Below are positions 25,095 to 28,000 of a stretch of DNA of 64,000 bases, in pieces. The notes under the pieces are model-generated. The model was not told the DNA's origin, did no database searches, and saw only the letters and a program-made list of their open reading frames with translations. Source of the stretch: an uncultured Verrucomicrobiae bacterium (GTDB lineage Bacteria > Verrucomicrobiota > Verrucomicrobiia > Palsa-1439). Position numbers and translations under genes: made by a program. The stretch lies in NCBI GenBank assembly GCA_963812605.1, contig CAWEWF010000002.1:96001-160000 (forward strand), in the 5' to 3' direction. The first letter of the stretch is position 1; every line of letters starts with the position of its first letter.

Positions 25095-28000
25095 TCAGAA
25101 GCCTATGATTTTCGGCGCTGCGGCAAGGGCCTCGGCCAATTTTTCAGGTTGCTTGCCACCGGCTTGGGCCAGATCAGGCTTGCCGCCGCCACCGCCACCG
25201 CAAATCTTCGCCAGTTCGCCGACGATCTTGCCGGCATTTTTGCCCTCTTTGACCAGGTCGGGTGTAACCATGCAAATAAGCGAAACCTTGCCTTCCGCCA
25301 CGCCACCCAAAACCACAATCCCGCTGGTCAGCTTCGGCCTGAGCGCGTTGACGATCGCCCGCAACAGATCGGCATTCGCATCGCCAAGATTACTCACGAG
25401 CAACCGGCCCTGCAATTTCGGCAGCAACTGCTCGGCCATGGCGGGCGCCTGCGCTTCCATCGCGGCCTGGCGTTGCTTGGCCAACTCTTTCTCCATCTCG
25501 CGCGCCCTGGCTTTCTCCGCCTCAGCCTTTTCCTGGTCGCCTTGCTTCGCAATAAATTCCTGGGCAAATTGCCCACAGACCGCTTCGACGCGACGAATCC
25601 CCGCCGCCACGGCCGATTCGCGCATGATCTTGAACAGGCCAATCTCGCCCGTGGTCTTCGTGTGCGTGCCGCCACAAAGTTCCATCGAAAACCCATCCAG
25701 CGCCTTGTCGTGTCCGCCAATCTGCACGATGCGGACGATATCGCCGTACTTGTCGCCAAAGAACTGCATGATATTCGGCTTCCCACGCACTTCCGCAAAA
25801 GGCATTTCAAACCAATACACGGGCAATGTTTCCTTGATCCGCTCGTTCACCAGCTTCTCAATGTCCGCGATCTGCTGGTCACTAAGTTTCTCGGGTTGGT
25901 TGAAATCAAAACGAAACCGGTCCGGCGCCACCAGCGACCCCTTCTGCCGCGCGTCCTTGCTCACGACCTCATGCAACGCCCAATGGAAAAGATGCGTGAC
26001 GGTATGGTGTCGCTGGATATTCGACCGTCGCGGCACATCCACTGCCGCACGGACTTTTTGGCCGACCTCCGGTAGCGCGAGCCTCTGGCTTGCGGTCGTT
26101 TGGCTTGCGGTCGTTGCCTCAGAGCGATGAACGTACACGTTCCCCTGTTTCTGCGTGTCGTGAACGACCGCAACCGGGACGGTCGCGTTACCCGGCGAAA
26201 AGATTAGCCCCGTATCCCCCACTTGACCGCCCATCTCCGCGTAGAACGGTGTCCGGTTGAGGATGACGTTGAAAGTCCTCTCCGCTCCTGGGGATACGGC
26301 TTCCACCACAGCTTCAACTTCGAGATTGTCATAACCAAGAAACTTCGTTGGCTCAACCTGCAGATTCTCGGTCGCAACGCTAATCACGGACTTCTTTTTT
26401 TCATGATCCTCGCGTGCCCGTTGCCGTTGCTCGTCCATCAATTTCTCGAAGCCAGCGGCATCAACGGTAAAACCTCGCTCTCGCGCAAGCAATTCCGTGA
26501 GATCGAGGGGGAATCCAAAGGTATCGTAGAGCACAAACGCCTCGTCACCACGAACCACGTTGTCGATGGGACGTTCTGGTTGCGGCATGCCCGGGGATTT
26601 CGGGCCATATGAGATGTCCACATATTTGTTAAAGTGCTCAATCCCGCGATCTAGTGTGCGGTTAAAGCTTTCCTCTTCTGCTTTAAGCAACGTCTCGATT
26701 TTTGCCTTATTGCGACGTAGTTCAGGAAATACTCCTCCAAAATTCTCCGCTACCACATTCACCAGTTTATAGAAGAATGGCTCGCGTAACCCGAGATTGC
26801 GTCCATAACGGACAGCGCGGCGGAGGATGCGGCGCAGGACGTAACCTCGACCCTCGTTCGAGGGCTGGATTCCATCAGCAATCGCGAAACTCAGGCAGCG
26901 GATGTGATCGGCAATGACGCGGAAAGCGATGTCGATTTTAATTTGTTCTTCTGATGGTGGCGCAAGCGTCCCTGCTTGCGGTTGTTCACTTGAGCCACCC
27001 GTTTGTCTGGCATCGATCACGACACCCAGCGTTTCCGTCGAGTGCCAGAACCATCGATATGCCTCCGGCCGTTCCGCCAATTGTTTCTTGACCGCGTTGT
27101 TCGCAATGTAATTCCACTTCTCTTCGTATTCCGCTTCATCGCGCACAATGCGGTCGTAGCTTTCGTGCTGCCAAACTGGACCAATCCACTGCCACTTCTT
27201 TTGAATCTGATTTGCCGTATATGACTTGATGCCGTGAAGCACCTCGCTCAGGGCGTGAAATCCCCTTTGCGCAACCGTCTGCGGGGAAGAAGCGTCGAGC
27301 GGAAGCGGCCACACCAGCAGATGAACGTGATCCGGCATCACCGTCACAGCGCGCAGGTCGTATTTACTCCCGTGCGAATGATGGCAGGCTTCCAACACAC
27401 AGTCGCGCATTTCGGGGGTCAATTCTCTCCGTTGATGCGTTCGAAATGTGACGAAATACACTGCACCAGGAGATTGCCAATGAGGAAGGCGGCGTTGGGA
27501 AACCGAGAATTGTTTGATGCCATCAATTGATTCGCAAGCAGGGACGCTTGCGCCACCCAAACCACCCGCAGGCAGCGTCCTGGTGTACTTCTTTCCGCTG
27601 AGCTCCTCCAGTTGGCGGAAGATCGGACTGAAGACATCGGTCTCGTAGTTGGAGATTCTTCCGGTGAAATCCTTGAAGCCGTTCGTGCATTGGATCATCG
27701 AACACACACGCTCGAAACCCATGCCGGTGTCCACGTGTTTCGCGGGCAATGGTTCAAATGTACCGTTGGGTAAGGCATTGAACTGAATGAACACGAGGTT
27801 CCATATCTCGATGCACAACGGGCTGCCGGAATTGACGAGCTTGGCGCCGCCGTCGCCGTTGAGAGTGAGGTCGAGGCTTATCTCGCTATTCGGTCCGCAA
27901 GGGCCGGTATCGGCCATCATCCAGAAATTATCTTTGCGGTTGCCGGGGACGATGTGGTCAGCGGGCAAATAGCGCAACCACAAGTCGCGCGACTCGAGGT

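Follow-up and report, generated by a model that had tools for sequence, protein, structure and literature searches.

Introduction

In the available text of PMC8266576, REP-associated tyrosine transposases (RAYTs, or TnpA-REP) are described as single-copy, extragenic and vertically inherited, with 'no evidence of tnpAREP mobility', and the accessible parts of 10.1101/2021.07.10.451892 and 10.1101/119735 likewise present them as single-copy and without evidence of self-mobility. Cleavage by these enzymes falls at a dinucleotide on the 5' or the 3' side of the hairpin, its distance from the hairpin varies, and it is confined to the guide-first strand (PMC8266576, PMC3333891). A change of the guide retargeted the cut in one of three enzymes (PMC8266576), and the cut made by E. 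coli TnpA-REP overlaps the complement of the guide (PMC3333891). How REPs move is still unsettled in the field (PMC8266576, 10.1101/2021.07.10.451892). PMC3479197, PMC3116915, PMC3184786 and 10.1101/2020.03.09.984088, in their available portions, were also part of our comparison with the literature.

As far as the available text of PMC3733652 and PMC6006769 goes, what is already known is the hairpins alone, that is, REPs translated in frame and REPs inside tnpA-REP genes. In the full-text literature, a coverage outside which subscription journals mostly fall, we found no account of a complete REPtron lying in frame within a host gene. Automatic JGI protein names already record the synthetase/transposase fusion. 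Here we analyse a 64-kb stretch of DNA (the window) in which an alanine--tRNA ligase gene, alaS, is read through an inverted REP pair and the RAYT domain enclosed by it.

Results

A perfect inverted REP pair is translated within alaS

The host gene and the two repeats are as follows.

25095..28442, minus strand: alaS, alanine--tRNA ligase, 1115 aa, in a recA-alaS-serS-tilS cluster
27533..27557, minus strand: REP bounding the cassette on its 5' side (coding strand), with GTGG foot at 27556-27553 and 8-bp stem of 27552-27545 with 27540-27533; encodes AlaRS residues 296-303; identical 24-mer in the related locus L012
26956..26980, plus strand: inverted REP at the 3' end of the cassette, with GTGG foot at 26957-26960 and stem of 26961-26968 paired to 26973-26980; its antisense reading gives AlaRS residues 488-496; identical in L012

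The first-pass annotation had reported a perfect inverted 25-bp pair here, and the 25-mers at 26956-26980 and 27533-27557 are indeed 100% complementary, with 552 nt between them. At up to 3 mismatches the pattern matches twice in the 64-kb window, with no further copy at that threshold; it gave 0 chance matches in 100 shuffles. Each repeat consists of a G, the GTGG and a 7-bp Watson-Crick stem closed by a 4-nt loop, as had been noted before, and a G-T pair brings the stem to 8 bp (hairpin fold z of -2.96 and -2.30). The GTGG stands directly at the 5' foot of both hairpins. With GT[AG]G 0-2 nt 5' of a 7-20 bp stem and a short loop, the definition that we took from the available text of PMC6006769, the hairpins are GTAG-family REPs, and their GTGG-footed anatomy bears out the earlier naming of them as such. 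Both repeats are translated within the 1115-aa alaS ORF, and the peptides reported previously, GGASVPAC and PQAGTLAPP, were read again at residues 296-303 and 488-496.

The family unit is slightly longer than 25 nt: a few extra bases on each side occur in the free copies of relatives and around the 26956 copy, and are missing from the 27533 copy. The 3' REP of L012 likewise shares with the window a few bases beyond the repeat. In all, the 64-kb window holds two exact copies and a degenerate pair, and three free copies with 2-4 mismatches lie outside genes in 184 kb from nine close loci. Just outside the 5' REP, positions 27558-27569 hold a short direct repeat of the G-rich foot, which may be a relic of an earlier end.

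The degenerate pair belongs to a related family and lies further downstream in the same gene.

26071..26192 (26071-26100 on the plus strand, 26163-26192 on the minus strand): second, degenerate inverted REP pair, in frame in alaS, without a transposase

Its two copies are 80% complementary and flank about 20 native residues. The pair is missing from nine aligned relatives and apparently replaces host loop sequence, and the 26163-26192 copy is almost the same as the 5' REP that bounds the cassette at another alaS locus, L001. A 13-nt tandem duplication lies at 26088-26115, within the same region. At 63075-63132, adjoining the end of a tolQ-like gene, there is a further inverted pair of GTAG-footed hairpins from a different family, a REP doublet without a transposase.

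The insert is predicted to form an extra domain of the host protein

On the solved AlaRS 1riq, the two halves that flank the insert meet without a gap at residues 258/259. The model of the whole fusion has a mean pLDDT of 67.6 and a pTM of 0.36, so that domain packing in it is unreliable; within it the RAYT is predicted to be well folded, and the flanks 289-322 and 472-496 fall below a pLDDT of 50. Such values fit disordered linkers, and variable alignment columns also depress pLDDT. The earlier suggestion that the repeats double as peptide linkers is consistent with these two predicted low-confidence flanks around a folded domain. Third-position GC is 57% in the insert versus 75% and 65% in the host halves.

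Other origins of so long an AlaRS were considered. A chimeric assembly artefact was rejected in view of such inserts in 120 listed AlaRS proteins and at 6 of 79 independent genome loci. An intein was rejected, as neither Pfam nor NCBIfam gave a match to a Hint or protein-splicing domain, and so was a self-splicing intron or IStron: Rfam, consulted for a catalytic RNA structure, returned no match at E <= 0.1 between 24500 and 29000. The neighbouring serS (23770-25052, minus strand) is split over two frames near 24663-24666, probably by an assembly indel.

The enclosed domain resembles TnpA-REP

The region between the repeats contains the following features.

27051..27485, minus strand: RAYT (TnpA-REP) domain, AlaRS residues 320-464, without a start or stop of its own
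27321..27329, minus strand: HUH metal-binding motif, H372 and H374
27141..27173, minus strand: segment W424 to R434, corresponding to the part of E. coli TnpA-REP that contacts the guide
27108..27110, minus strand: catalytic tyrosine Y445, invariant in two alignments

Residues 320-464 scored 83.1 bits against the model for REP-associated tyrosine transposases (NF047646, cutoff 80) and 23 bits against the IS200 model NF033573 (cutoff 55); a Pfam search of the whole fusion protein reported no match to Y1_Tnp. The structure model of the domain (pLDDT 91) found its best PDB match in a fold search in 4er8, E. coli TnpA-REP (TM 0.72, E 6.3e-9), with the ISDra2 (TM 0.52) and IS608 enzymes ranking below it, and a profile search gave E values of 3.9e-12 for TnpA-REP versus 1e-4 for IS200 TnpA. 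A single-sequence PDB search had given weak IS200 matches (E >= 0.19); the profile and fold searches settled the matter in favour of TnpA-REP.

H372, H374, Y445 and the W424-R434 guide-contact segment, the last assigned by profile alignment to 4er8 together with the residue list in the available text of PMC6006769, are all intact. Among AlaRS-embedded RAYT domains the HUH pattern is present in 124 of 130 and the tyrosine pattern in 128 of 130, and the comparison of the window with L012 (pS 0.79, dN 0.22) places the core under purifying selection. Judged by sequence and predicted fold, the enclosed domain is an intact RAYT with putative HUH activity, and the HUH chemistry proposed in the first-pass annotation agrees with its HUH and tyrosine residues and its modelled TnpA-REP fold. 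At 27099-27101 an alanine replaces the usual proline of the RAYT YxxNP motif; it does so throughout the clade, in fused and free-standing members, and is therefore not a sign of decay.

Empty alleles place the insertion ends at the repeats

We compared the locus with relatives from an alaS genome scan, which covered 79 loci in the best 80 of 246 stretches, titled Verrucomicrobia or unnamed. Among the 11 closest loci, two are filled, one contains palindromes only and eight are empty. Six close empty alleles have a five-residue loop, with 72 nt between anchors versus 678 in the window. The net insert is thus 606 nt, against a repeat-to-repeat span of 602 and a foot-to-foot span of 600.

26949..27569, minus strand: interval replacing the five-residue loop of empty alleles, 621 nt, residues 292-498

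The true ends fall inside 7 nt outside the copy starting at 26956 and 12 nt outside the copy ending at 27557, distances that rest on the window and a few DNA loci. The codons flanking the repeats do not align with the empty loop, so the junctions are not placed to the base, and some host bases seem to have been replaced. The earlier proposal that the hairpins define the insertion ends therefore holds to about 10 nt: the boundaries lie at the repeats, not far from them. No direct repeat or target-site duplication was seen flanking the pair, in line with what had been noted before; given how far the flanks have diverged, this is weak evidence for the HUH chemistry with which it was then linked. 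Nor was a fixed target motif seen at the outer flanks, which vary and are not alignable with the empty site. In a test for a homing-type co-conversion tract, synonymous divergence between L001 and L005 rose downstream of the insert (32/55 versus 38/246), and a rise was also present in the empty-empty pairs L002-L005 and L005-L008.

The repeats are conserved as nucleic acid

The locus L012, from another species whose host sequence is about 79% identical, carries the identical 24-mer at both cassette ends, although its RAYT core shares 67% protein and 68% DNA identity with that of the window. Between the two, none of the 17 degenerate codons in the REPs has changed, whereas the core differs at 55 of 96 and the N-terminal part of the host at 88 of 241. 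If the REPs changed as fast as the core, 0/17 would have a probability of about 5e-7; at the pace of the host it would be 4e-4. With a synonymously saturated core, this indicates that the REPs are conserved as nucleic acid, and not as peptide or merely through youth. The comparison thus points to a nucleic-acid-level constraint, most likely recognition by the RAYT. Across seven REP copies, stem pairing is kept in every one of the 56 cells and one change is compensatory; this covariation count is not significant (matched in 63 of 500 shuffles). Perfect ends are not obligatory: four of the five other in-frame cassettes seen as DNA have ends that are 72-89% complementary. The filled alaS of L012 (10001-12301) stops at 767 aa through a downstream frame break, which is an assembly error or marks a pseudogene.

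Of the two causes offered at first for the perfect identity, recency or constraint at the DNA/RNA level, the comparison with L012 favours the second. A very recent insertion as the whole reason for the identity of the ends seems very improbable. The low third-position GC of the insert and the decayed ends of other cassettes speak for youth, and a fairly young insertion may indeed lie behind that GC difference; yet the same 24-mer persists at both ends in L012 next to a synonymously saturated core, and no close donor was found. Recency could add to constraint, not replace it, and as sole cause it is largely refuted by these sequence comparisons. Also in question is the earlier idea that the ends could pair in mRNA and loop out the cassette, and with it the reading that the repeats are kept perfect so as to loop out, skip or splice it. 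Pairing itself is predicted, as a 25-bp helix appears in both the minimum-energy and the centroid fold of a 661-nt transcript segment (z -3.86), but any perfect inverted repeat would fold so, the imperfect ends of the other cassettes do without it, and the Rfam search between 24500 and 29000 was negative. Coupled translation should melt a helix across 552 coding nt, and with the frame open loop-out is not needed; we regard this function as extremely improbable. Selection on the linker peptides themselves is the explanation to which we give next to no credence: the frames used do yield small, flexible residues that are predicted to be disordered, but not one synonymous position has changed, and the REP peptides and reading frames employed by other cassettes are many and varied.

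Related cassettes recur in AlaRS loops and other genes

An AlaRS homologue search aimed at the insert region, and thus selecting for the insert, listed 120 matches, all of which carry RAYT domains (130 in total). Of these domains 82 sit at the window's loop, 44 at a second loop and one at a third, the remaining three being mis-placed because their proteins are partial. The unselected frequency of in-frame cassettes is 6 of 79 alaS loci. AlaRS cassette linkers are REP peptides of several families, and the two ends of a cassette tend to match each other: read back from the peptides, and hence as an upper bound, 134 of 225 cassettes could be encoded with a perfect inverted repeat of 24 nt or more, which holds for 61 of 400 cross pairs and for 13 of 150 shuffles. 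Some synthetases carry two RAYT domains in different loops of a single protein (P0007, P0012, P0014, P0015, P0017, P0019-P0023 and P0123). The second hot-spot loop, at AlaRS residues about 608-630 (about 26550-26620), shows extreme variation in length as well as sequence, and does so even between close relatives that lack a RAYT.

On the host tree, filled alaS alleles do not form one clade: there are 9 changes on 26 rows (p-AU 9e-45), a count in which gain and loss are indistinguishable and the filled rows were selected for carrying a RAYT. Several filled alleles have empty sisters, one such pair at 100/100 support. The RAYTs at the window's loop fall into at least three clades forced by starred branches, and the smallest starred clade containing the window's RAYT unites nine alaS and six birA copies (100/97).

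Related RAYTs are fused, internally or terminally, to about 18 host families (120 of 171 listed matches; 54 long representatives), including ValRS, IleRS, ThrRS, BirA, PurH, Ham1, RecG, PriA, shikimate kinase, Hsp70 and DNA methylases; a host domain is present in 45 of the 54 long proteins, which come from the best 150 representatives. Judged from these alignments and trees, the distribution over the AlaRS loop and other genes is patchy and tree-incongruent. Free-standing RAYT relatives (P0229-P0238) are 52-61% identical, and in nine of the ten (P0229-P0237, 56-61%) the ORF itself includes the same REP peptides. The best full-length RAYT match is 67% identical and no near-identical copy of the cassette was found, so that no recent jump is documented; plasmids gave one weak match (31%) among 72,556 records. 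Just downstream of alaS, L032 has a free-standing RAYT-like ORF (13001-14043) flanked by different inverted repeats.

Discussion

A proposed route for the REP-bounded block

Our preferred reading, to which we assign a probability of about 0.62 as a whole, is that the two repeats are the cognate REPs of the enclosed RAYT, that the RAYT moves the block of REP, core and inverted REP like an outsized REP doublet, nicking and rejoining single-stranded DNA, and that an insertion persists only if it is in frame within a loop that tolerates it, where the block becomes an additional translated domain. The unit would be the inner REPtron block, in which the spacer of the doublet is the transposase itself, inserted in frame into a tolerant surface loop of AlaRS. 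In the window's RAYT lineage the REPs would already have lain within the reading frame of the transposase, so that the block, REPs included, contains neither a start nor a stop and could survive in a host gene whenever its length is a multiple of three. The in-ORF REPs of free-standing relatives would supply this pre-adaptation. The fusion would be translated whole, with the REP peptides as disordered linkers and AlaRS still working, and the RAYT would gain the expression of the host gene.

Each strand offers one single-stranded hairpin with GTGG at its 5' foot, to which the RAYT would bind before nicking and rejoining at guide-selected dinucleotides. Under the guide rule GTGG would select CC, a site offered by the complement of the far foot, which gives candidate cuts between 27553 and 27554 on the plus strand and between 26960 and 26959 on the minus strand; these positions extrapolate from the guide rule of one of three enzymes and from the overlap of the E. 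coli cut with the guide complement. A second, looser cut would fall outside the near REP. A far-foot cut combined with such a near cut would, on this proposal, leave ragged ends, small host deletions and no target duplication. Both REPs would be held to the family master sequence by being recognised, or paired together, in the single-stranded intermediate.

We infer the mobility of the cassette from its spread. Against self-mobility stand the lack of a near-identical cassette, with the best RAYT match at 67%, the absence of RAYT self-mobility from the available text of published work (PMC8266576, 10.1101/2021.07.10.451892, PMC3479197), and the monomeric state of E. coli TnpA-REP, which in the accessible accounts makes a two-ended transfer hard to picture. 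The wider claim is more tentative, and we hold it at somewhat under an even chance: that these cassettes constitute an autonomous class of single-stranded DNA transposon living as unspliced protein domains in Verrucomicrobia, Planctomycetes and other phyla. Using HUH chemistry of its own, the stop-free block would jump into loops at the surface of essential enzymes, among them tRNA synthetases, BirA, PurH, RecG and PriA, revisiting the same loops; it would be active inside the host polypeptide, intein-like but without splicing, and would be the first case of RAYT self-mobility.

Alternative origins

The main rival, which we consider unlikely, is a two-step assembly in which a short REP doublet entered the loop first and the RAYT core was copied in later from a free-standing REPtron, by TnpA-REP strand exchange or by homologous gene conversion through shared REPs; the repeats would then be recombination junctions and not the ends of one transposed unit. 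Many alleles do have REP-like peptides or doublets in the loop without a RAYT (for example L007), free-standing relatives carry REPs in the same frame, and the scheme would also explain the perfect identity of the ends. For a RecA-type exchange, however, 25 bp is short. Strand exchange between inverted-REP sites has been obtained in vitro with the E. coli system, but REP-only loops are equally explicable as deletion remnants, and precise loss of tnpA-REP between kept repeats is reported in the same source (PMC3333891, available text).

A single ancient insertion, domesticated as the genome's source of RAYT, inherited vertically and repeatedly lost, with any spread due to host recombination of alaS segments and not to transposition, appears quite improbable. 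It would suit the purifying selection on the domain, the filled state of all basal rows of the sampled close clade and the housekeeping-like behaviour of RAYTs elsewhere (10.1101/2021.07.10.451892, 10.1101/119735, in their available portions). The filled basal rows, however, are a sampling effect of the insert-directed search, and nearly the same loop of five residues, which filled alleles lack, recurs in six empty alleles from separate branches. Moreover, different RAYT clades and REP families occupy the same loop, and the nearest RAYT clade spans alaS and birA.

Significance

RAYTs are viewed in the field as domesticated, single-copy and immobile; the spread of the cassette suggests that one does move, hidden as an extra domain. 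The unit is compact (600 nt), has perfect ends and an intact enzyme, and comes with known empty alleles and a wealth of natural insertion sites, which makes it a direct substrate for asking if a RAYT can move a segment bounded by REPs, itself included, and by what means. The cassette also shows a route by which domains may be inserted into essential enzymes without splicing. According to the available text of PMC6006769, that survey dropped over-long proteins as 'gene fusions or annotation errors', so the cassette-fusion class was filtered out there; the cassettes would explain the 'tRNA ligase/transposase' mis-annotations of thousands of residues that were thus removed.

Comparison with known systems

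With the IS200/IS605 elements IS608 and ISDra2 the cassette shares a putative HUH single-strand chemistry, hairpin ends with a tetranucleotide guide and the lack of a target duplication, but its ends are symmetric, perfect inverted REPs, its NF033573 score (23, cutoff 55) is low, and its fold lies closer to TnpA-REP (TM 0.72 versus about 0.52). Inteins are mobile in-frame passengers that recur at few sites of essential genes. They offer an analogy of lifestyle; unlike them, the cassette has no Hint or splicing domain and is presumably never removed from the protein.

Other close parallels are the intragenic GTAG REPs of other bacteria, abundant in Opitutus terrae of the Verrucomicrobia, and the Rickettsia palindromic elements, where REPs or doublets are translated in working proteins (PMC3733652). 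The inserts in the available text of that paper have similar peptides, presumed to lie in loops, with 70 O. terrae rows in file 3. They are 7-53 residues long and non-autonomous, whereas the doublet in the window encloses a full transposase domain; no transposase entry was found in four of its supplementary files. In-frame REP insertions within tnpA-REP genes are a likeness to TnpA-Y1 subclass 2.4 as set out in the accessible parts of PMC6006769. The window's RAYT has an HUH signature like that of subclass 2.7 and guide-region D/R substitutions like those of 2.5 and 2.7, resemblances that amount to no formal subclass.

Another close match is with the REPtrons of E. coli (4er8), S. maltophilia (Sm) and Marinomonas (Mb), as described in the available text of PMC8266576, PMC3333891 and PMC3479197. 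The HUH and tyrosine residues and the 4er8 fold are shared, tnpA-REP is flanked by inverted cognate hairpins with a GT[AG]G foot, the guide-contact residues are kept, and the stems of the cassette are short and near-perfect like those of group 3 REPs. Two classical REPtron features are lacking, the free-standing state and the fixed locus. The cassette has no start or stop of its own and lies in frame inside an essential gene instead of standing free and extragenic, and, where classical REPtrons are single-copy and vertically inherited, its locus is not fixed and its phylogeny is incongruent with that of the host.
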